A DNA stretch of 51,139 nt, taken from a virus. Lineage: Duplodnaviria; Heunggongvirae; Uroviricota; Caudoviricetes. Within the stretch, counting starts at the first letter, position 1; every line of letters starts with the position of its first letter. The notes beneath the pieces are model-generated. The model was not told the DNA's origin, ran no database searches, and was given only the letters and a program-made list of their open reading frames with translations. Below, piece after piece: positions 2,191-48,307 of the stretch. The DNA is taken from IMG/VR virus record IMGVR_UViG_2744054912_000002. One strand, 5' to 3'. A program made the position numbers and the translations under genes.

Positions 2191-3780
2191 TTACTTAATA
2201 AGCAGCGGTACGCCCTGGATACGACGGGCTACGCCAGTCGGGCAGCAGGCCCAGACTACTTCCCATTTATCGAATTCCGCCTGCGTAACTTTCAGCACAT
2301 ACGGTTCTGTACCGTCAGCATCAGGATCACGAGGAGCCACCAGAGCGCCGGAGGCGACAAAGCGATCTAAAAGTTTGGTCATCCCTTTAGTCAGGCCAGC
2401 CGCAGTAATACCGTCCGGGCTATGCTTCATCTGTCGGGCTAACTGGACAAAGAAACGGCTGATTGCATTCATCAGGGATGGGACGTGCTGGAAGTGCAGA
2501 TAGTTATCCTGCGTGCAGCAAGTTAAAGCATCGTCGATGATCATCTGGCCAGAGGTGCCAACAGATACTTTATTGAGACGGCCCTTGACCATTGCTTCTT
2601 CGTCCGGGGTATCTTCCGGATACAGCGGTTGAATTGACGCACGAGCAATGACGGCACGTTCTTCACCAGCCGGTGAGTAATGCCAACCGCCGACATCAGA
2701 GTTTTTCTTGACGCCACGAGCTTTCGCCGCATACGCCGCGCCAGACAGACCGAAGACCACACGGGATTGGGTCCATTTGTCTTTGCAGGAGAACGGGAAG
2801 TGATAGACAGCACAGCTTACATAATCGGTACCAAGTAAACCGGTATCTTCAACAGCAGAGAGCGCTTCCGTATACGTCAATGTCGGTTTGACATCAAAGA
2901 AGCCATCAATCAGGCGATCAGAACAGATATTACCTAACGCGGTGATCGCCGCATTGTCATAGCAACCCAGGCCGAGAACAGCGGTGTACATGTACGGCGC
3001 ATTGTTCAGCACCTTAACCGCACGCAGGTAGGCTTCGGTGGAGATTTTCGACTGATCGCCGTTGGTACCGCCAGTGAACGCCAGTGATTTTTTATTTGTT
3101 ACTTTCGCGGTCGAAATCAGCTCTTCATTAACAACCGCGCACAGATATTTAGAACGGGCTTCCAGAGCCGTAGGCAGATAACACAAGCGGCCCATGTCAT
3201 CTTTCGCTTCTTCCGCCAAAGACACAGTGTGTGTCTCCAGGGTCGTTACCACACCGAGCGAAGTCGTCTGGGTCAGTTTTAAGAGGAAGCGTTCATTACC
3301 TGCGCTGTCCGCTGTTGCCGTTTCGATGGTTAACTCACGGGTAGGTGAAATACACGGATCACCATCATCAACGTAGATAGCAAAGGCTTCGCCGCTATCA
3401 AGTTCAATTTCAGAACCGTATGGCAACGCACTGTAAGCTGGTTCGCCTGATTCATCGAACATAATAATCGGGAACTTCGCATCATCCGGAACAGCACGAA
3501 CAACATAACCAGACGTTTGCTGAATAGCTTCGTACACATGACGAATTGGTTCGAACTGTGAGCCGGAAGACGGCTTCAGCGGTTCGCCGAGAACATCTTC
3601 GTAATTGGACTCAGTAACCGCCAGAACAGTAAACGGCTTGCCACGCGCAAATACGCCAATACCAGCCCACAAGCTGCTATTTAATGCAACACCGGTAGAT
3701 AACGTCGCATCGGCATTGATCGGGCTAACCGCGACGCCGGATGCATTACCTAATGACTGTTGAATTGAATATTGAGACAT
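2191..3780 (-). CDS. Contractile tail sheath protein (P1 gp22-like)
   Basis: 529 aa, AGGGAAAG RBS, sheath-like composition and C-terminal region; position between head gene and downstream tail genes. Confidence 0.65.
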   Translation of the reverse strand: MSQYSIQQSLGNASGVAVSPINADATLSTGVALNSSLWAGIGVFARGKPFTVLAVTESNYEDVLGEPLKPSSGSQFEPIRHVYEAIQQTSGYVVRAVPDDAKFPIIMFDESGEPAYSALPYGSEIELDSGEAFAIYVDDGDPCISPTRELTIETATADSAGNERFLLKLTQTTSLGVVTTLETHTVSLAEEAKDDMGRLCYLPTALEARSKYLCAVVNEELISTAKVTNKKSLAFTGGTNGDQSKISTEAYLRAVKVLNNAPYMYTAVLGLGCYDNAAITALGNICSDRLIDGFFDVKPTLTYTEALSAVEDTGLLGTDYVSCAVYHFPFSCKDKWTQSRVVFGLSGAAYAAKARGVKKNSDVGGWHYSPAGEERAVIARASIQPLYPEDTPDEEAMVKGRLNKVSVGTSGQMIIDDALTCCTQDNYLHFQHVPSLMNAISRFFVQLARQMKHSPDGITAAGLTKGMTKLLDRFVASGALVAPRDPDADGTEPYVLKVTQAEFDKWEVVWACCPTGVARRIQGVPLLIK

Positions 3781-16980: not shown

Positions 16981-17055
16981 GATGGTGTAGCTCAGCGGTT
17001 AGAGCGGTTGACTGTTAATCAACGGGTCGATGGTTAAATCCATCCACCATCGCCA
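16981..17055 (+). tRNA. tRNA-Asn (anticodon GUU), CCA encoded
   Basis: Hand-folded cloverleaf: acceptor GATGGTG/CACCATC, D-arm GCTC-AGCGGTTA-GAGC, anticodon loop CTGTTAA; T-loop appears to be 6 nt (TTAAAT) in my fold, so boundaries are approximate. Confidence 0.75.
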
Positions 17056-17057
17056 AT

Positions 17058-17133
17058 GCCGGTTTAGCTCAGTTGGTAGAGCGCCTGCCTTGTAAGCAGG
17101 ATGTCAGCGGTTCGAGTCCGTTAATCGGCACCA
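17058..17133 (+). tRNA. tRNA-Thr (anticodon UGU), CCA encoded
   Basis: Acceptor GCCGGTT/AATCGGC, D-arm GCTC-AGTTGGTA-GAGC, anticodon loop CTTGTAA, T-arm AGCGG-TTCGAGT-CCGTT; 2 nt after tRNA-Asn. Confidence 0.85.
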
Positions 17134-18564: not shown

Positions 18565-18640
18565 GGCCCTTTAGCTCAGTGGTTAGAGCTGGCGACTCAT
18601 AATCGCACGGTCACCGGTTCAAGTCCGGTAGGGGCCACCA
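18565..18640 (+). tRNA. tRNA with CAU anticodon (Ile2/lysidine-type or Met), CCA encoded
   Basis: Acceptor GGCCCTT/AGGGGCC, D-arm GCTC-AGTGGTTA-GAGC, anticodon loop CTCATAA, T-arm ACCGG-TTCAAGT-CCGGT. Confidence 0.8.
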
Positions 18641-32187: not shown

Positions 32188-35100
32188 CTATATTTTTCCG
32201 CCTACGCCTTTAAACTTCTCAATAAACGAGACGATTTTCTGGAAAACTGCCTGTTTTTTCGTTTTATATTGCGGATTTAACGGACTAAGTTTTGGTAATG
32301 TTTCGTTTAATTCTGTGCCATTTTCGGTGGCATATTCGCGTTTTAAAGACGTGCGAATATAGCGTTTTGCTGCATCTTCATTGAGATTTTCTTCTTTTAT
32401 CAATGCTTCTGCTTCACGTTGCTGTTCGCGTTGAGCAAACGTAAAGAATGCGTCAATGATGCTGGCTTTGTCCGGTAAATCATCCAGGTTCGTTTGCTGA
32501 ATAAAATCGACCACCAGGCCTTCTTTAGCACGGTTCCCCAGGCTTGAACGAATTAAGCGTTTGACCTCTTCGATCATTTCGCCCTTGCCTTTATTTTGTC
32601 TGTTGTGTTCGAAAATCAGTCCAAGGATATAATCCAGGTTTATTTCCTGAGACTTCAGCAAATCGACCTCAAAAACTACGTCATCCCAGTCAGTGGTTGA
32701 TTTCTCTTTTTTCTCAGCTTCTTTCTCACGGCGCTGCCAGTCGCGAATATCGTTATAGGCAGAACGATAATCCTGAATCTTGCGTTCAGCAGGGAGACGA
32801 ATTGTTTGCAATTCAGCGAACTTTTCATCATCCACATAATGTTCTGCTTTGAATTTTTCTACCGCAACAGGATCGCTAAGATCGATTTGTTGCAGGGCTT
32901 TTAGCGTGGCAAATTCATCATAGTTTTGCAGGATGTTCTCGGCACGCAGGTATTCGCCAAACAGTTTAACGAAGTCTTTCTTCTCTTTTTCACTTTCAAT
33001 ACTGGCAGGGTCAGGGAACCGTTGTTCCAGTTCTGAAACTACTGTCATGAAGCCGCGTTTAGCTTCACCAGTGGTAGCATCAGTAAAGCCTTCCATATAC
33101 TCTGCATAACTCTTTTCTAAAACCACATTTTTGGTATTTTTGTCACCAAACAGCGTTATGGCATCAATAGTTGAGCGTTCCAGATCCCGGAAAGTGACGA
33201 TATTACCGAAGGTTTTAGTTGCATCATAAATACGGTTGGTGCGGGAAAATGCCTGCATCAAGCCGTGAAAACGCAGGTTTTTATCGACGAATAGCGTGTT
33301 CAATGTTGGAGCATCGAAGCCGGTTAAAAACATCCCCACGACAATTAACAGATCGATATCCTGATTTTTAACCCGTTGGGCTAAATCACGATAGTAGTTC
33401 TGAAAACCGTTACTGTCGGTGCTGAAGTTAGTTTTAAAATAGCTGTTATACTCACGAATTGCAGCGTCAAGAAACTCTTTAGCACTGCTGTCCATTGCGC
33501 TGGTATCAAAAGTTTCATCGGAAATTTCACCAATGGCATTTTGTTCTTCATTGGCGGCAAAGGAGAAGATTGTCGCAACACGCAGCGATTTATAGGTGGC
33601 CGATTTATTAGCTGCTTCCTCTTGTAACCGTTTAAACGTCGCGTAATAGGCTTTCGCGGCATCCACGCTACTCACTGCCAGCATGGCATTAAAGCCTTTG
33701 GAACCTGGGAAAGTACGGTGGGTCTTCTGGCGGAAGTTATTCAGAATATATTGCGTAATTTCCTGTATACGCATGGGATGAAGAAACGCCTGCTGATTTT
33801 CAGCCGCACTCAGTTTTTTCTCGTCGGTTTCTGTCTCTAAAGACTTAAACTGTGGCCGCACATCGTTATAGTCCACCTTGAATTTGAGCACTTTTTCATC
33901 ACGAATCGCATCGGTAATAACATATGAATGCAATTCACGACCAAATACGCTGGCGGTCGTTTCTGAGCCTAAAGCGTTTTCCGGGAAAATAGGGGTGCCG
34001 GTAAAACCAAACTGATAATAGCGTTTGAATTTCTTCTTCAGGTTTTTCTGCGCTTCTCCAAACTGGCTGCGGTGGCATTCATCAAATATAAACACCACTT
34101 GCTGATTATATACAGGCAGGTCGCTTTCTGCTTTCATCAGGTTATTGAGTTTCTGAATAGTAGTGACGATAATTTTGTTATCGTCCTTATCCAGATTTCG
34201 TTTAAGGCCTGCGGTATTTTCCGAGCCGTTGACGCTGTCTGGCGAAAAACGCTGATATTCCTTCATGGTCTGGTAATCGAGGTCTTTCCTGTCGACCACA
34301 AAGAAGACTTTATCAATAAAGTCCAGCTCTGTTGCCAGACGCGCGGCTTTAAAGCTGGTGAGGGTTTTACCAGAACCGGTAGTATGCCAGATATACCCAC
34401 CGCTTTCCGGTTTTGACCAGTTCTTCGCTGTAAAGGAACTCTTAATTTTCCACAGAATGCGCTCGGTGGCGGCAATCTGGTACGGTCGCATCACCAGTAG
34501 CGTCTGACTACTGTCAAAAACGCTGTAGTTCACCAGAACATTCAGCAGAGTATGTTTCTGGAAAAAGGTAGCGGTAAAGTCTTTGAGGTCTTTAATCAGC
34601 GTGTTGTCTGATTTCGCCCAATTCATGGTGAAGTCAAAACTGTTTTTATCGCGCTTTGTCGTGTTGGCAAAATAACGGGTATCGGTGCCGTTAGAAATGA
34701 CAAACAGTTGCAGATACTTAAACAGGGAATTTTCGCTGTTAAAACTCTCTTTACTGTAACGATGTATCTGGTTGAAAGCCTCACGAATCGCCACCCCGCG
34801 TTTTTTTAGTTCGATTTGCACCAGCGGTAAACCATTAACCAGGATCGTGACGTCATAACGGTTAGCATGAGAACCCGTCTGTTCAAACTGCTGGATAATC
34901 TGCACCTTATTGCGCATGAGATTCTTTTTATCTATCAAATAGATGTTCTCAAGTCGCCCGTCGTCAAAAATAAAGTCGCAGATATAGTCGATATGGATTT
35001 TACGGGTTTTATCCAGAATACCATCGCTGGGGTTGTCCAGATACTGCTCCGTGAAGCGCCGCCACTCGCTGTCATTAAACATCACACCATTGAGGCTCTG

Positions 35101-40870: not shown

Positions 40871-42064
40871 GTGACCTGGGACGATCACAAGAAGAATTTT
40901 GCTCGCCTGGCGCGAGATGGTGGTTACACCATCGCACAGTATGCCGCCGAGTTTAATCTTAACCCTAATACCGCACGTCGTTATCTCCGTGCCTTCAAAG
41001 AAGACACCAGGACTGCGGACAGCCGCAAGCCAAATAAGCCAGTCAGGAAGCCACTAAAAAGCATGATCATTGATCACTCTAATGATCAACATGCAGGTGA
41101 TCATATTGCGGCTGAAATAGCGGAAAAACAGAGAGTTAATGCCGTTGTCAGTGCTGCAGTCGAGAATGCGAAGCGCCAAAATAAGCGCATAAATGATCGT
41201 TCAGATGATCATGACGTGATCACCCGCGCCCACCGGACCTTACGTGATCGCCTGGAACGCGACACCCTGGATGATGATGGTGAACGCTTTGAATTCGAAG
41301 CTGGCGATTACCTGATAGATAACGTTGAAGCGCGGAAGGCCGCGCGCGCTATGTTGCGTCGGTCCGGGGCCGATGTTCTGGAAACCACTCTTCTTGAAAA
41401 GTCTCTTTCTCACCTCCTTATGCTGGAGAACGCCAGGGATACGTGTATTCGCCTGGTGCAGGAAATGCGCGATCAGCAAAAAGGCGATGATGAAGGTACT
41501 CCGCCTGAATACCGTATCGCGAGCATGCTAAACAGCTGTTCCGCGCAGATAAGCAGCCTGATCAACACCATTTACAGCATCCGGAATAACTATCGAAAAG
41601 AAAGCCGGGAGGCGGAAAAGCACGCTTTGTCTATGGGGCAAGCTGGCATTGTTAAGCTGGCATACGAACGAAAGCGTGAAAATAACTGGTCAGTGCTGGA
41701 AGCTGCTGAATTCATCGAGGCGCATGGCGGGAAAGTGCCGCCCCTGATGCTGGAGCAAATCAAAGCCGATCTGCGTGCTCCTAAGACCAATACCGATGAT
41801 GAGGAAAGGCAAACAGCCGTCGGTGGCCCTTCTCTTGAAGATCTGGACAAAGTTGCGCGAGAACGGGCCGCCAACCGCCGCGCCGATGCCGCATTGTGGA
41901 TTGAGCAGCGTAGGGAAGAAATCGCCGATATCGTTGATACAGGCGGTTATGGAGATGTTGATACTGAAGGTGTATCAAACGACCCATGGCTGGAACAAGA
42001 CCTGGACGAAGACGAGGAGGAAGACGAAGAAGTTACCCGCAAGCTATACGGGGATGATGATTAA
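40871..42064 (+). CDS. pacA: Packaging endonuclease small subunit PacA
   Basis: 397 aa; contains the pac hexamer clusters within its 5' coding region. Confidence 0.85.
41062..41224. other. pac: pac packaging site: two clusters of TGATCA/GATC hexamers (4 + 3)
   Basis: GATC hexamers at about 41064, 41071, 41083, 41098 and 41193, 41205, 41217. Confidence 0.75.
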
Positions 42065-43548
42065 TGGCCAGAAGTTGCGTAACGGATCCACGTTGGCGCG
42101 AGCTGGTGGCGCTATATCGTTATGACTGGATTGCGGCCGCTGATGTTTTGTTCGGCAAAACACCTACCTGGCAGCAGGATCTGATTATTGAGTCTGTGCA
42201 GGAACAGGGTAGCAAGACATCTGTTTCGTCTGGTCACGGTACCGGGAAATCAGACATGACTTCTATCATGATCATGTTGTTCATAATCATGTATCCCGGT
42301 GCCCGCGCCATTATCGTTGCGAACAAAATTCAGCAGGTAATGACCGGTATATTCAAGTACATCAAGATAAACTGGGCTACTGCCACCAGCCGTTTTCCAT
42401 GGCTTGCTGATTATTTTGTTCTGACAGAAACCGCTTTCTATGAGGTTACTGGTAAAGGTGTATGGACTGTAGTACCGAAGGGCTTTCGTCTGGGAAGTGA
42501 AGAAGCTCTCGCCGGTGAACACGCAGACCATCTTCTGTATATTATCGATGAAGCCTCCGGTGTCAGTGATAGAGCTTTCGGTATCATCACCGGTGCTCTT
42601 ACCGGACAGGATAACCGCATCTTATTGCTGTCACAGCCTACACGCCCAAGCGGCTATTTCTACGATACACACCATAAACTGGCCAAGCGTCCTGGTAACC
42701 CAGATGGCGTTTATACGGCGATCACGCTTAACAGTGAGGAATCACCGCTGGTAACGCCAGAATTTATCAAAATGAAGCTGGCGGAGTACGGCGGGCGTGA
42801 TAACCCTATGTACATGATTAAGGTACGCGGCCTATTCCCTAAATCACAGGACGGCTTCCTTCTTGGACGTGATGAGGTTGAACGTGCGACGCGGCGGAAA
42901 GTCAAGATTGCCAAAGGATGGGGCTGGCTTGCATGTGTGGACGTTGCTGGTGGTACAGGACGGGATAAGTCCGTTATCAATATCATGATGGTGTCCGGCC
43001 AGCGAAATAAACGCCGTGTAATCAACTATCGAATGCTGGAATACACAGACGTTACAGAAACGCAGCTTGCCGCCAAAATTTTCGCAGAATGTAATCCTGA
43101 GCGATTCCCAAACATCACCATAGCGATAGACGGCGATGGGCTGGGTAAAGCAACGGCGGATCTGATGTACGAGTATTATGGTATTACCGTACAGCGCATA
43201 CGCTGGGGTAAAAAGATGCATAGCCGTGAAGATAAGAGCCTGTACTTTGATAAACGTGCTTATGCCAACGTTCAAGCCGCAGAGGCCGTAAAATCTGGTC
43301 GTATGAGACTGGATAAGGGTAATGAAACTATTGAGGAAGCGTCGAAAATCCCTGTAGGGATTAACTCCGCGGGTCAATGGAAAGTGATGAGTAAGGAGGA
43401 TATGAAGAAAAAACTCAACCTGCACTCACCAGACCATTGGGATACATATTGTTTCGCTATGCTGGCGGATTATGTTCCCCAGGATGAAGTGCTTAGCGTC
43501 GAAGACGAAGCGCAGGTTGATGAAGCTCTGGCATGGCTTAATGAATGA
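42064..43548 (+). CDS. pacB: Terminase large subunit PacB
   Basis: 494 aa; ATPase/nuclease terminase-like; ATGA overlap with pacA. Confidence 0.85.
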
Positions 43549-43550
43549 AT

Positions 43551-43567
43551 ACTTGCTCTAATAAATT
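43551..43567 (+). promoter_or_regulatory. C1 operator-like site after pacB
   Basis: ACTTGCTCTAATAAATT (one mismatch to consensus). Confidence 0.55.
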
Positions 43568-43700
43568 GTGTTTTTTAACTGCCGATGTTACATTGAGCCT
43601 GACCTCTTGCGCCTTGAGGCATTTTCGGTTTATGCTTATCAGGCACCTCAGTAAAACGGGTGCCGGGATTGAGACCCCGGATAATGCAAAAGGCGACACA

Positions 43701-43722
43701 GACGCCAAAAGCGTCTTTTTTT
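43701..43722 (+). terminator. Rho-independent terminator
   Basis: gacgc-caaaa-gcgtc followed by T7. Confidence 0.6.
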
Positions 43723-43744
43723 GTGTCATGCCATCGCACAGCCA

Positions 43745-43880
43745 TACGTAGCGTTTAGCTCAGAGATCAATGGTAGTGCTGGCTGGGCTGCCGAAAGGCA
43801 GGCCGGTTCCCTTTTGCGCCGGTAGTCTCAACCCAGTCAGTGCTACCGCCATTGAGATTGAGACCTCACGCGGTAGCTCC
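43745..43880 (+). ncRNA. Structured leader / candidate c4-like antisense regulatory RNA
   Basis: Long imperfect closing stem (43765-43782 with 43823-43844), GAAA-tetraloop hairpin (43788-43801), second hairpin (43803-43822) whose loop is complementary to the downstream RBS. Confidence 0.4.
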
Positions 43881-43907
43881 TTAAATTAGCAAAAGGAGGC
43901 TGCCATT

Positions 43908-44129
43908 GTGGCTACTATCCCTACCCCTGCTCATCCTGAATTTATCTGGCGCTTTTACTCCTGCCAAAAACGTCACTATCACTTCGTTATTGCACCGACA
44001 GAAGATGAGGCACGTTCTCAGCTTCCGGATGCTCCCTGTATTTTCTCTGCCCGCTTTTCTACCGATTCGCGCAATTCTCTCAGTTACTGGTGCCTCCCTG
44101 TTAACGCTTCTGCTCAGGAGGGACTATGA
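43908..44129 (+). CDS. Small protein translationally coupled to the antirepressor (icd-like, 73 aa)
   Basis: AAAGGAGG RBS; stop TGA overlaps the ATG of the next gene (ATGA); my hand count of the start codon was off by 1 nt, so I follow the ORF track. Confidence 0.5.
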   Translation: MATIPTPAHPEFIWRFYSCQKRHYHFVIAPTEDEARSQLPDAPCIFSARFSTDSRNSLSYWCLPVNASAQEGL

Positions 44130-45238
44130 GAACGTCATTAGTCACCCGTGAAGAGATGATCGAGGCAATTGAACAGCACACTGCCTGTATCAGTACCAGG
44201 GATATACCGGGCGTTATTGCCAACTACTTCATGATCACCAAACAACTTTACCGGAGAAAGGACAAACACGCGGTTCACCGCATTCTGCTAACCGATATCC
44301 GTGAATACCTGCTCGAACAGGGTCATCTGAATTACGCAACCGTCGCAGCCGAAGCACGCAAGGAGGCACACAGAATGAAAGCAACTAACGTTAAATCAGA
44401 AAAAATTTATGCACCTTCAGTTCAGGAATCGGAACTGGTGGTTGTTCAGAATCAGCCGGATGAAATTCCCGTTCTGGAATGGCAGGGAGTACGTGTCGTG
44501 ACAACCGAAACTCTTGCTAGAGGGTATGGTGTCGATGAAGCCAATATTCGCAACAATTTGTCTCGCAACCTTGACCGCTTTGAAGAAGGTAAGCATTACT
44601 TTCTTCTAACTGGTTTAAAATTAAGAGAATTTAAGAACAGAGTAACCGGAAGTTACTCTGTTGGTAAGAACGCCAGAAGCCTTACACTCTGGACAGAGCG
44701 CGGCGCTGCACGCATGTCTAAGATCGTGGACACAAATGAAGCATGGGCATTCTTTGAAAAACTGGAAGACAGCTACTTCCGGCAAAAAGAACAGCAACCG
44801 GTTGCAATCCCCCAGACGCTTCCAGAAGCTCTGCGCCTGGCTGCCGAACTGGCTGAACAAAAGCAGCTTCTGGAACAGAAAGCCCACCAGCTAAATCAGC
44901 AGCTGGTGGCCGCCGCTCCTAAAGTCGATTTTGCCGACCGGGTATCAGTAGCTAAAGGGATCCTGATTGGGAATTTTGCAAAGGTTGTTGGACTTAAGCA
45001 AAACGCGCTGTTTGCCTGGTTACGGGAGAACGGCATCCTGATAGCGTCCGGTGGACGTAAAAATGTGCCGTTCCAGCAGTACATCAATGCGGGGTATTTC
45101 ACGGTGAAAGAAGTGGTGCTGGATGATGAAGATGGCTACCAGATACGGTTGACGCCTCAATTAACGGGTAAAGGCCAGCAGTGGTTGACGCGTAAACTGC
45201 TCGATGCTGGCTTGTTAAAACCGGTGGCGGCTGAATAA
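44126..45238 (+). CDS. Antirepressor-like protein (ORF6N-like N-terminal domain plus KilA-C/AntA-like C-terminal domain)
   Basis: 370 aa; ...VRVVTTETLARGYGVDEANIRNNLSRNLDRFEEGKHYFLL... and C-terminal ...PFQQYINAGYFTVKEV... Confidence 0.7.
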   Translation: MRTSLVTREEMIEAIEQHTACISTRDIPGVIANYFMITKQLYRRKDKHAVHRILLTDIREYLLEQGHLNYATVAAEARKEAHRMKATNVKSEKIYAPSVQESELVVVQNQPDEIPVLEWQGVRVVTTETLARGYGVDEANIRNNLSRNLDRFEEGKHYFLLTGLKLREFKNRVTGSYSVGKNARSLTLWTERGAARMSKIVDTNEAWAFFEKLEDSYFRQKEQQPVAIPQTLPEALRLAAELAEQKQLLEQKAHQLNQQLVAAAPKVDFADRVSVAKGILIGNFAKVVGLKQNALFAWLRENGILIASGGRKNVPFQQYINAGYFTVKEVVLDDEDGYQIRLTPQLTGKGQQWLTRKLLDAGLLKPVAAE

Positions 45239-45270
45239 TGGAAGAATGCCCGGTTGATGCCGGGCATAAT

Positions 45271-46122
45271 TTATTGCGCGCTTTCGGGGTTGTCGTTTAC
45301 TGGCTGCCCCTTCTTGGTTTTACGGCTGCGCGTAACTGATGCGCCTGACTTAACCTTTTTCTCTTCGCGAGTGATGGCAATTTGTTTTTTTACATTTTCA
45401 ATATCTGCCAGGCGATATATTTTTGCTTGCGGCCAGCGGTCGCAGATGATCGGTTCTATGGAGTCATAAAGGCTAAATTTTGCTTTTTCGAATTCACCGT
45501 TGATGATAATTCCATCACGGAGAGTTTCATCGCAGATAAACACGCCACACAGTGGCACATGGTAACTAACTGATTTACCATCATTGTAGTTAGGGCTACT
45601 GGAAATGTAGTGGACGCGCAGCATTGTTTCGCTAAAGCCGTGTACGCGCATACGGAATTTTTCATCCTCCGGGTACTGCCTCATTAGCTCTTTTGTTGCT
45701 TCCAGGTTCTCTATGTATTTCGCACTGTGCTCATTGAGCCCCGCGCTTTTTTGGATGCGAATGTCCTTATCAATCAGATGAATAATGCGGCCAGCGGTCA
45801 TGTTGACGCTGTTCACAGCTTCTGTCTGATAAGTTGTAACCTTACGTACACCGCGAAGGATGTTAGGCACTGGATATAAAATAGTCTTTGGGATATTGAG
45901 GTCTGGGTACTGTTCCAGTTCCCGCGCCATTAAAGTCCATTTATCAATTTCAGCCTGAATGCTGTCAGTTTCTTTGAACGGTAGAACGACAACCGGGCGT
46001 ACAGGACGACCGTCGCTGGCTGTATCAACGTGTTGGGCGCGTGCAACAGCTTTTTTTAGAAAGAGATCCCTGAAGCTGACGAACTCCTGGTACAGTTGTT
46101 CGCCGTAGACATAATTTATCAT
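45271..46122 (-). CDS. c1: Primary lysogeny repressor C1
   Basis: 283 aa, matching P1 C1 length; preceded by coi, with operator-like sites upstream. Confidence 0.9.
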   Translation of the reverse strand: MINYVYGEQLYQEFVSFRDLFLKKAVARAQHVDTASDGRPVRPVVVLPFKETDSIQAEIDKWTLMARELEQYPDLNIPKTILYPVPNILRGVRKVTTYQTEAVNSVNMTAGRIIHLIDKDIRIQKSAGLNEHSAKYIENLEATKELMRQYPEDEKFRMRVHGFSETMLRVHYISSSPNYNDGKSVSYHVPLCGVFICDETLRDGIIINGEFEKAKFSLYDSIEPIICDRWPQAKIYRLADIENVKKQIAITREEKKVKSGASVTRSRKTKKGQPVNDNPESAQ

Positions 46123-46232: not shown

Positions 46233-46442
46233 TTATTGTGAGTCTAACTGGTTAGTTGCCATGAGATATTCGATTGTGTCAGTGAGGTCATCCAGGTCGT
46301 CTTGGGTGATGCGGTACTCCTGATTGGATATCTTTGAGTAGTGTTCAGCAATGGCGCGGGCAGCGTCGGTTTCGGCAGGGTCTACAGATAAAGCGTTAGA
46401 GCAATGTCTAACGTCGTCGATGGTTGGTTGAATGAAAGCCAT
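46233..46442 (-). CDS. coi: C1 inactivator Coi
   Basis: 69-aa ORF immediately upstream of c1 in the same orientation. Confidence 0.7.
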   Translation of the reverse strand: MAFIQPTIDDVRHCSNALSVDPAETDAARAIAEHYSKISNQEYRITQDDLDDLTDTIEYLMATNQLDSQ

Positions 46443-47275: not shown

Positions 47276-48307
47276 ATGTCCAATTTACTGACCGTACACC
47301 AAAATTTGCCTGCATTACCGGTCGATGCAACGAGTGATGAGGTTCGCAAGAACCTGATGGACATGTTCAGGGATCGCCAGGCGTTTTCTGAGCATACCTG
47401 GAAAATGCTTCTGTCCGTTTGCCGGTCGTGGGCGGCATGGTGCAAGTTGAATAACCGGAAATGGTTTCCCGCAGAACCTGAAGATGTTCGCGATTATCTT
47501 CTATATCTTCAGGCGCGCGGTCTGGCAGTAAAAACTATCCAGCAACATTTGGGCCAGCTAAACATGCTTCATCGTCGGTCCGGGCTGCCACGACCAAGTG
47601 ACAGCAATGCTGTTTCACTGGTTATGCGGCGGATCCGAAAAGAAAACGTTGATGCCGGTGAACGTGCAAAACAGGCTCTAGCGTTCGAACGCACTGATTT
47701 CGACCAGGTTCGTTCACTCATGGAAAATAGCGATCGCTGCCAGGATATACGTAATCTGGCATTTCTGGGGATTGCTTATAACACCCTGTTACGTATAGCC
47801 GAAATTTCCAGGATCAGGGTTAAAGATATCTCACGTACTGACGGTGGGAGAATGTTAATCCATATTGGCAGGACGAAAACGCTGGTTAGCACCGCTGGTG
47901 TAGAGAAGGCACTTAGCCTGGGGGTAACTAAACTGGTTGAGCGATGGATTTCTGTCTCTGGTGTAGCTGATGATCCGAATAACTACCTGTTTTGCCGCGT
48001 CAGAAAAAATGGTGTTGCCGCGCCATCATCCACCAGCCAGCTATCAACTCGCGCCCTGGAAGGGATTTTTGAAGCAACTCACCGATTGATTTACGGGGCA
48101 AAAGATGACTCTGGTCAGCGATACCTGGCCTGGTCTGGACATAGTGCCCGTGTCGGTGCTGCGCGAGATATGGCCCGCGCCGGAGTTTCTATACCGGAGA
48201 TCATGCAAGCTGGCGGCTGGACCAACGTAAATATTGTCATGAACTACATTCGTAACCTGGATAGTGAAACGGGGGCAATGGTGCGCCTGCTGGAAGATGG
48301 CGATTAG
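47276..48307 (+). CDS. cre: Cre tyrosine recombinase
   Basis: 343 aa, MSNLLTVHQNLPALPVDATSDEVRKNLMDMFRDRQAFSEHTWKMLL...; catalytic tyrosine region at C-terminus; 436 nt from loxP centre. Confidence 0.98.
   Translation: MSNLLTVHQNLPALPVDATSDEVRKNLMDMFRDRQAFSEHTWKMLLSVCRSWAAWCKLNNRKWFPAEPEDVRDYLLYLQARGLAVKTIQQHLGQLNMLHRRSGLPRPSDSNAVSLVMRRIRKENVDAGERAKQALAFERTDFDQVRSLMENSDRCQDIRNLAFLGIAYNTLLRIAEISRIRVKDISRTDGGRMLIHIGRTKTLVSTAGVEKALSLGVTKLVERWISVSGVADDPNNYLFCRVRKNGVAAPSSTSQLSTRALEGIFEATHRLIYGAKDDSGQRYLAWSGHSARVGAARDMARAGVSIPEIMQAGGWTNVNIVMNYIRNLDSETGAMVRLLEDGD

Follow-up and report, generated by a model that had tools for sequence, protein, structure and literature searches.

The 51,139-nucleotide (nt) sequence of the Caudoviricetes virus record IMGVR_UViG_2744054912_000002 (hereinafter, the window) represents a P1-like (Punavirus) phage-plasmid, as indicated by its gene content and by the annotation of the relatives JL22, RCS47 and P1. 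In this window, the pacB and c1 genes are separated by 1722 base pairs (bp; 43549-45270) that contain a full immI-type operon, whereas in the reference P1 genome (AF234172) pacB ends at 93206 and c1 at 93231, leaving a gap of only 24 bp, and immI (c4, icd and ant1/2) is located far off, at 48.1-49.7 kilobases (kb). The interval is missing from both P1 and P7. We consider it highly probable that this module is an intact second immunity/anti-immunity operon of the immI type, paralogous to c4-icd-ant1/2 of P1 and located between pacB and c1; the module is probably functional. It comprises, in this order and all on the plus strand, a C1-operator-like site with promoters, an IsrK-like leader containing the a1 and b1 sites and a terminator, the C4 antisense RNA, the a2 and b2 sites, icd, and ant1 with a nested ant2. 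The map position at pacB-c1, rather than at sim/kilA-repL as is typical of P1 and P7, is not mechanistically defining. The analysis addressed the anatomy of the sequence, the family membership of the RNAs, covariation, cognate-specific complementarity and the distribution of the module across sequence records. A preliminary description of this stretch, made from the sequence alone, had reported a structured RNA in front of a 73-codon open reading frame (ORF), an ATGA overlap of the stop of this ORF with the start of a gene for a 370-amino-acid protein with ORF6N-like and KilA-C-like domains, and the resemblance of the whole to the c4-icd-ant operon of P1; it had placed immI of P1 far away and c1 right after pacB. 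All these observations are borne out by the results below, and the paralogy with P1 extends feature for feature from the operator to the nested Ant2 start.

The gene for the C4 antisense RNA occupies positions 43766-43853 (Rfam RF01695, 75 bits against a gathering score of 45, E-value 6.6e-13). The fold is of the type with a conserved, long closing stem and two internal hairpins; across eight homologues, 14 of the 25 predicted pairs show compensatory changes, and the closing stem contains no broken pair. The tRNA-like closing stem and a 3' tail that contains GCCA (ACCGCCA) are readily visible in this RNA, and by analogy with P1, it is expected to be matured by RNase P. The C4 gene is overlapped by a 39-amino-acid ORF (43770-43889, plus strand) that matches the Pfam family Phage_ASH (29.1 bits, cut-off 26) and is named 'ash family protein' by NCBI in the relatives. 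The Phage_ASH family may be largely a conceptual translation of C4-type RNA genes; the equivalent of this ORF in Gifsy-1, orf45, is reported as translated.

In P1, the b' loop and the a' segment of C4 pair with the a2 and b2 sites of the icd-ant mRNA and with the putative upstream sites a1 and b1, as annotated in the P1 record. All these elements are identifiable in the window. The b' loop of C4 is CCTTTTGC (43810-43817), complementary to b1 and b2, and the a' segment is GTCTCAA (43825-43831), complementary to a1 and a2. The target region in the icd-ant mRNA (43858-43896) consists of a2 (TTGAGAC, 43858-43864), an exact 7-nt complement of a', and b2 (GCAAAAGG, 43889-43896), an exact 8-nt complement of b' that overlaps the Shine-Dalgarno sequence of icd (AGGAGG, 43894-43899). 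The pairing appears to be specific: the duplex of the window C4 with its own target has a predicted energy of -24.0 kcal/mol, compared to -12 to -19 kcal/mol with non-cognate targets. When duplex energies were computed for seven C4 RNAs against as many target regions (a 7x7 matrix), the cognate duplex was the most stable in every case (-21 to -27 kcal/mol versus -10 to -21.5 kcal/mol for non-cognate pairs).

The a'/b' code of the window, GTCTCAA/CCTTTTGC, is distinct from those of P1 (CTGTCAA/TCACTAAC) and P7 (CTGCTAA/TCACAATC), and differs also among the occupants of the pacB-c1 locus, where three specificity cassettes were found among the variants compared. The type A cassette is present in the window, JL22 and pGF31-A. 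Type B, with the b' loop CCTTTGAC and b1/b2 sites GTCAAAGG, is found in RCS47, and type C, with a' AGGCCAA and b' CCTTGGAC, in 673R5 and five plasmids; the targets of the latter match if G-U pairs are allowed. The operator/promoter part of the module is nearly constant among these variants, and the cassettes differ from a1 on. Thus, C4 and all four target sites have changed in concert in three variants, for example, b' from CCTTTTGC to CCTTTGAC together with b1/b2 from GCAAAAGG to GTCAAAGG, which implies selection on the pairing and is hard to explain otherwise. This coordinated change, together with the integrity of all ORFs here and in hundreds of records and the preservation of the nested Ant2 start and of the ATGA coupling, makes it extremely improbable that recombination left behind a duplicate that is now non-functional and decaying. 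In favor of decay, it can be noted that the support for function is drawn from sequence, that the promoter hexamers are weak, and that in 673R5 the antirepressor gene at this locus is annotated with 774 bp versus 1113 bp here and c1 is annotated in fragments.

The C4 gene is preceded by an IsrK-like leader RNA (43643-43721; Rfam RF01394, 58.2 bits against a gathering score of 50). The corresponding leader of P1 scores 35 bits with this model. At the gathering threshold, the window gave no match to the c4-a1b1 leader family, RF03163, although this model matches P1-type leaders. The leader contains the a1 site (TTGAGAC, 43669-43675), an exact complement of a' that lies in a hairpin loop of the predicted fold, and the b1 site (GCAAAAGG, 43686-43693), an exact complement of b' that is single-stranded in this fold. 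These sites are followed by an intrinsic terminator-like hairpin, AGACGCCAAAAGCGTCT, with a subsequent TTTTTTT run (43700-43723), identified in a terminator scan, which closes the short leader RNA; an equivalent hairpin with a T-run is present after b1 in the immI leader of P1. This hairpin had been taken for the terminator of pacB in the preliminary description but is instead the 3' end of the IsrK-like leader that carries a1 and b1. Partial read-through of this terminator must take place for transcription to reach c4-icd-ant. The 273-nt leader as a whole (from 43643 to the icd start) folds with z = -5.5 relative to shuffled sequence.

The start of the module, previously set at 43745, is actually located approximately 190 bp upstream, at a C1-operator-like site (CTTGCTCTAATAAATTG, 43552-43568) that begins 4 bp past the stop codon of pacB and has two mismatches to the consensus ATTGCTCTAATAAATTT (15 of 17 positions). 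This site, the equivalent of Oc4/Op51, aligns with Oc4 of P1 and is kept in all variants of the module; C1 is predicted to bind there. In the entire window, there are 14 C1-operator-like 17-mers (11753-48818) against 0.25 expected by chance, as would be anticipated for a P1-type genome. Two putative promoters follow. The first one, which overlaps the operator and is the equivalent of P2c4/P51a (43566-43594; -35 TTGTGT, -10 TACATT), is assigned solely by positional homology with the annotated P1 promoter. The second, a putative constitutive promoter equivalent to P1c4/P51b (43607-43636; -35 TTGCGC, 18-nt spacer, -10 TATGCT), aligns with the P1 sequence TTGACC...TATAGT, and its predicted start, at about 43643, coincides with the first position of the IsrK model. 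A consensus promoter scan detected none near the operator: the P51a equivalent fell below the threshold and the P51b equivalent was missed. Both promoters are predicted from their alignment with the annotated promoters of P1.

The icd-like gene (43908-44129), which starts with GTG here and with ATG in the relatives, encodes a protein of 73 amino acids that matches the NCBIfam Icd-like family NF033153 (49.8 bits, cut-off 25) and shows 81% identity to the P1 Icd of the same length. By analogy, its product would be a cell-division inhibitor, and icd itself would be the leader ORF needed for the translation of ant. The stop codon of icd overlaps the start of ant1 via ATGA (44126-44129), and ant is likely to be translationally coupled to icd as in P1.

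The ant1-like gene (44126-45238) encodes a 370-amino-acid antirepressor. Profile searches yielded strong matches to antirepressor families, namely, Pfam ORF6N (amino acids 116-200; E-value 2.5e-18, 66.6 bits, cut-off 27.8), Pfam ANT/KilAC (PF03374; amino acids 258-359; E-value 1.5e-31, 109.3 bits, cut-off 25.3) and PHROG 63 'anti-repressor Ant' (E-value 1.3e-135). Across its entire length, the protein shows 57% identity to P1 Ant1. In the alignment with P1 Ant1 and the canonical Ant1 of JL22, the Ant1-specific N-terminus (about 95 amino acids) is conserved, and the C-terminal KilAC region (about 140 amino acids) is nearly identical to that of P1 Ant (about 93% amino acid identity). The middle portion of about 130 amino acids has been replaced, with an ORF6N domain here and no Pfam match in this part of the P1 protein. 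ORF6N domains with about 50% identity are found in antirepressors of Shiga toxin (Stx) and lambdoid phages and also in phages of Gram-positive bacteria. The central domain is the most variable part of Ant among the module variants. A nested ant2-like frame of 287 amino acids (44375-45238) begins with an in-frame ATG at codon 84, after AAGGAGG; ant2 of P1 starts at the identical 83-codon offset, and M84 is invariant in the alignment of five sequences. The putative Ant2 start is placed as in P1 and may be used in the same way.

The target of Ant is probably still C1. With its middle domain exchanged, Ant could act on another target or on a wider range of targets, as the principal alternative supposes. 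According to this alternative, the module is aimed at other elements: C4 would silence the icd-ant operons of phages of the same C4 type, such as D6, whether these are co-resident or incoming, the ORF6N-type Ant would act against repressors of unrelated prophages, and Icd would be a growth-arrest factor. Such a specialization is unlikely. It does accommodate the variable, exchanged central domain of Ant, with its similarity to Stx and lambdoid phage antirepressors, and the 93-95% identity of C4, the a/b sites and the leader, including identical a' and b', to one of the two immI loci of D6. Against it stand the conservation of the Ant1-specific N-terminus and of the KilAC C-terminus with P1 Ant, the presence of a P1 C1 operator on the operon, and the position of the locus beside c1. 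Furthermore, action on other elements is compatible with the role of the module as a second immI-type operon, and the two are not mutually exclusive.

The preliminary description had left open whether the module is a rearranged or an additional determinant. The latter is the better supported of the two: JL22 (99% identical), RCS47 (95%) and 673R5 (87.5%) all carry the canonical sim-side c4-icd-ant1 in addition to the pacB-c1 module. Because these closest sequenced relatives hold both, the comparison favors an additional determinant over a rearranged one. The opposing view, that the module is the sole immI, relocated next to c1 following the loss of the canonical sim-c4-icd-ant, appears very unlikely. 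The canonical immI position lies outside the window, which starts at bplB/pmgG, and some carriers contain one ant-like match per record, as relocation would predict; yet, the best plasmid matches contain two to three ant-like places per record, and the only single-copy record that was inspected (NZ_CP145673.1) is a degraded plasmid. The latter is an 85-kb P1-derived plasmid, rich in insertion sequences (IS), with polysaccharide-synthesis cargo and a second replicon, IncX1, that has lost most of the phage genes but keeps one block consisting of phd/doc, lpa, pacA, pacB, the extra icd-ant module, c1 and coi. Being degraded and IS-rich, it was rejected as uninformative with regard to replacement of the canonical immI by the module.

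The full pacB-module-c1 arrangement was detected in 270 of the 796 matching PLSDB records and in 251 of the 766 matching complete Escherichia coli genomes. The NCBI pipeline names the products 'host cell division inhibitor Icd-like protein' and 'phage antirepressor', and the RCS47 record uses 'ant'. The insertion at pacB-c1 has been mentioned for RCS47, and extra icd-ant homologues have been described in the res-mod region of pSvP1 (Venturini et al., 2019; PMC6906374). Given this mention and the numerous plasmids and genomes, the novelty implied in the preliminary description cannot be maintained: the pacB-c1 arrangement is already known and is a common, catalogued variant of the classical system. 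Phage-plasmid surveys and a 2026 preprint contain nothing on the pacB-c1 module, and in the four phage and RefSeq plasmid records inspected, the C4 RNA, the IsrK RNA and the operator are unannotated at this locus. For the RNA layer at pacB-c1, that is, C4 with a code of its own, the a1/b1 and a2/b2 sites, the operator, the three swappable cassettes, the orthogonality to the co-resident immI and the connection to IsrK, no description was found, although the key D6 paper was not covered, so that this gap may be smaller than it seems.

Several points weigh against an intact, C1-directed second immI operon. The case for it is built on sequence comparison; the two promoters have weak hexamers, each missed by the consensus scan; and the middle third of Ant is unrelated to that of P1 Ant, so that the target perhaps is not C1 or not only C1. 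Moreover, given that the window starts approximately 4.5 kb downstream of the canonical immI position, the existence of a second module in the source genome rests on the relatives, and some of the carriers are degraded plasmids riddled with IS, where the module can have no role in a phage life cycle. The maintenance of intact copies in the 270 plasmid records and 251 E. coli genomes argues in the opposite direction.

The operation of a second immI-type operon at this locus can be outlined by homology with P1 genetics and with the experiments on Gifsy-1, from which promoter use, RNase P processing, translational coupling and binding of Ant to C1 are transferred. Transcription would proceed from a C1-repressible promoter overlapping the operator and from a weaker, constitutive promoter. 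In a lysogen, C1 would close the former, and the weak homologue of P51b would maintain the supply of C4. Some of the transcripts would end at the leader terminator, producing a short IsrK-like RNA that displays a1 and b1, and the read-through transcripts would give rise to C4 RNA, probably excised by RNase P as in P1. The b' loop and the a' segment of C4 would pair with a2 and b2 on its own mRNA and occlude the ribosome-binding site of icd; neither Icd nor Ant1/Ant2 would then be made in the lysogen because translation of ant would be coupled to that of icd. When C4 is absent or titrated, for example, upon entry into a cell whose prophage makes another type of C4, or through an excess of the a1/b1 decoy RNA, Icd and Ant would be produced, and Ant would inactivate C1 and lift immunity. 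Competition of the short, terminated leader RNA for C4 is the step for which the homologous IsrK of Gifsy-1 provides experimental backing. Because the a'/b' code differs from those of P1, P7 and the canonical immI of the same genomes, the module would function as an independent lock and key. A lysogen would gain wider immunity with a second C4 type, and an infecting phage would gain a second Ant that a resident prophage could silence only with the matching C4.

These comparisons can be extended to a more general proposal. In the five genomes with two modules that were typed (JL22, RCS47, 673R5, D6 and Ro157c2), the two modules of the same genome differ in b' in every case, and at least eight b' sequences are found among the 13 modules examined. 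Tentatively, and with slightly more doubt than confidence, we suggest that plasmid prophages of the P1 and D6 types routinely carry at least two orthogonal C4/Ant circuits, that the hypervariable b' loops constitute a combinatorial immunity code, and that the IsrK-like a1/b1 leader is a decoy that titrates C4. If so, every additional module would supply both a further lock, in the form of a C4 able to silence incoming phages of the matching type, and a further key, in the form of an Ant that is silenced only by the matching C4 of the resident. Under the same proposal, the 'IsrK-orf45' mechanism of Gifsy-1 could be reread as an anti-antisense switch acting on a C4 homologue, and a function would be found for the long-unexplained a1 and b1 sites of P1. 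With the arrangement itself already known, what remains of interest is the combinatorial C4 code and the idea of IsrK/a1b1 as a decoy.

The broader relevance stems from the status of P1 as a workhorse of bacterial genetics and from the spread of antibiotic-resistance genes by its relatives as phage-plasmids, among which immunity circuits decide which ones coexist, exclude or induce each other. Roughly one in three of the sequenced records with a match to this region carries this second, RNA-addressed antirepressor operon, which is lacking in the laboratory references P1 and P7; hence, the immunity rules derived from P1 and P7 are incomplete for natural isolates. The practical gain is in annotation, with C4 and IsrK-like RNAs, the operator and the a/b sites now placed at pacB-c1.

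The module is flanked by pacB on the left (42064-43548, plus strand; ORF call and annotation from JL22, RCS47 and P1) and, on the right, by the c1 repressor gene (45271-46122, minus strand; 98% identity to P1 C1), which is convergent with ant. The ORF calls and the annotation of the relatives further identify pacA (40871-42064), coi (46233-46442) and cre (47276-48307). A GC-rich hairpin between the convergent ant and c1 genes, ATGCCCGGTTGATGCCGGGCAT (45246-45267, no strand assigned), is terminator-like with weak T-runs according to the terminator scan. A transposon-like insertion was considered and rejected: there are no flanking direct or inverted repeats, and the 24-bp spacer of P1 is simply replaced. 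This spacer, CTCATTAACCATGCCGGATGGAAA (3708-3731 of the P1 segment), has only the 7-mer ATGCCGG in common with the window sequences at 43549-43560 and 45239-45270; the shared 7-mer sits in the right arm of the ant/c1 terminator hairpin of the window. The stop codons of pacB and c1 are TGA and TAA in the window versus TAA and TAG in P1. The difference reflects either a loss of the module from P1 or its gain in the other lineage. The small ORFs over the leader (43545-43751 on the plus strand, 43538-43729 and 43575-43745 on the minus strand) gave no credible family matches and were treated as non-coding. Elsewhere in the window, there are three tRNA genes (16981-17130, 18565-18637), as expected for a P1-type genome.

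Among the known systems, the immI loci of P1 and P7 are the closest in organization, with the same order and spacing of all elements. Like the pacB-c1 module, they have a C1 operator, a leader with a1, b1 and a terminator-like hairpin, a C4 of the same fold, a2 and b2 sites with b2 placed over the ribosome-binding site of icd, a 73-amino-acid Icd, the ATGA overlap, a nested Ant2 start at codon 84 and the KilAC C-terminus. The P1 and P7 loci differ in their sim-kilA location, whereas the window module lies at pacB-c1 without sim genes, and in their a'/b' codes; in the window module, the middle domain of Ant is replaced by ORF6N. The identical pacB-c1 position and gene set are found in RCS47 (FO818745/NC_042128), JL22, vB_EcoM-673R5, the plasmid pTZ20_1P and about 270 PLSDB plasmids, with 87-99.9% nucleotide identity; RCS47 and the 673R5 group differ in having C4 specificity cassettes other than that of the window.

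Phage D6 is an unrelated plasmid prophage and not a Punavirus. In the D6 locus at 74-75.5 kb (orf83, icd; orf82, antirepressor), the IsrK-like leader, C4, the a/b sites and the 5' end of icd are 93-95% nucleotide-identical to those of the window, and the a' and b' segments are identical. In contrast, the D6 antirepressor is of the Rha type, with no detectable similarity to the window Ant, and there is no P1 C1 operator upstream. Thus, the RNA cassette and the antirepressor have been exchanged independently, given that the type A cassette in D6 is combined with an unrelated antirepressor. D6 (loci at 74-75.5 kb and 20-21 kb) and vB_EcoM-Ro157c2YLVW each possess two c4-icd-ant modules with different b' loops, and the extra module of Ro157c2 is located at a site other than pacB-c1. 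As a general feature, plasmid prophages of this kind seem to carry several immI modules, at sites that vary. A weak C4-like match in the D6 segment (2074-2153; 40 bits, below the gathering score of 45), approximately 350 bp upstream of the type A IsrK-like leader (2502-2580), could be a third, degenerate or divergent C4.

Finally, the isrK-orf45-anrP locus of Gifsy-1 resembles the module in the succession of an IsrK leader with a terminator, a C4-family RNA and an antirepressor gene coupled via ATGA to an upstream ORF. The C4-family RNA (Rfam, 69 bits) was identified here at 34131-34214 within the segment examined (NC_010392, 34076-34316, minus strand), between isrK and anrP, and is overlapped by orf45. 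The differences are that the coupled orf45 overlaps the C4 homologue itself, that there is no separate icd, that the antirepressor is of another type, and that there is a downstream effect on AntQ. In Gifsy-1, G28 and G31 of IsrK pair with C162 and C159, and IsrK supplied in trans raises the translation of anrP more than 100-fold; Hfq binding and trans-activation of antirepressor translation are known from Gifsy-1 IsrK only (Hershko-Shalev et al., 2016; PMC4825925). With the start of IsrK taken as +1, G28 and G31 fall in TTGGCGT, which corresponds to a1, and C162 and C159 in ACGCCAA, which corresponds to a', so that the numbering fits exactly; in addition, an a2 copy is present downstream of the C4 homologue. 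The Gifsy-1 study does not mention P1, c4 or RNase P, and in a 2025 review, IsrK and c4 are listed individually, with no link drawn between them. Altogether, the Gifsy-1 IsrK system looks like an a1b1/C4 device of the P1 type, with IsrK as the decoy for C4, a correspondence that joins two literatures and provides a testable role for the a1 and b1 sites.

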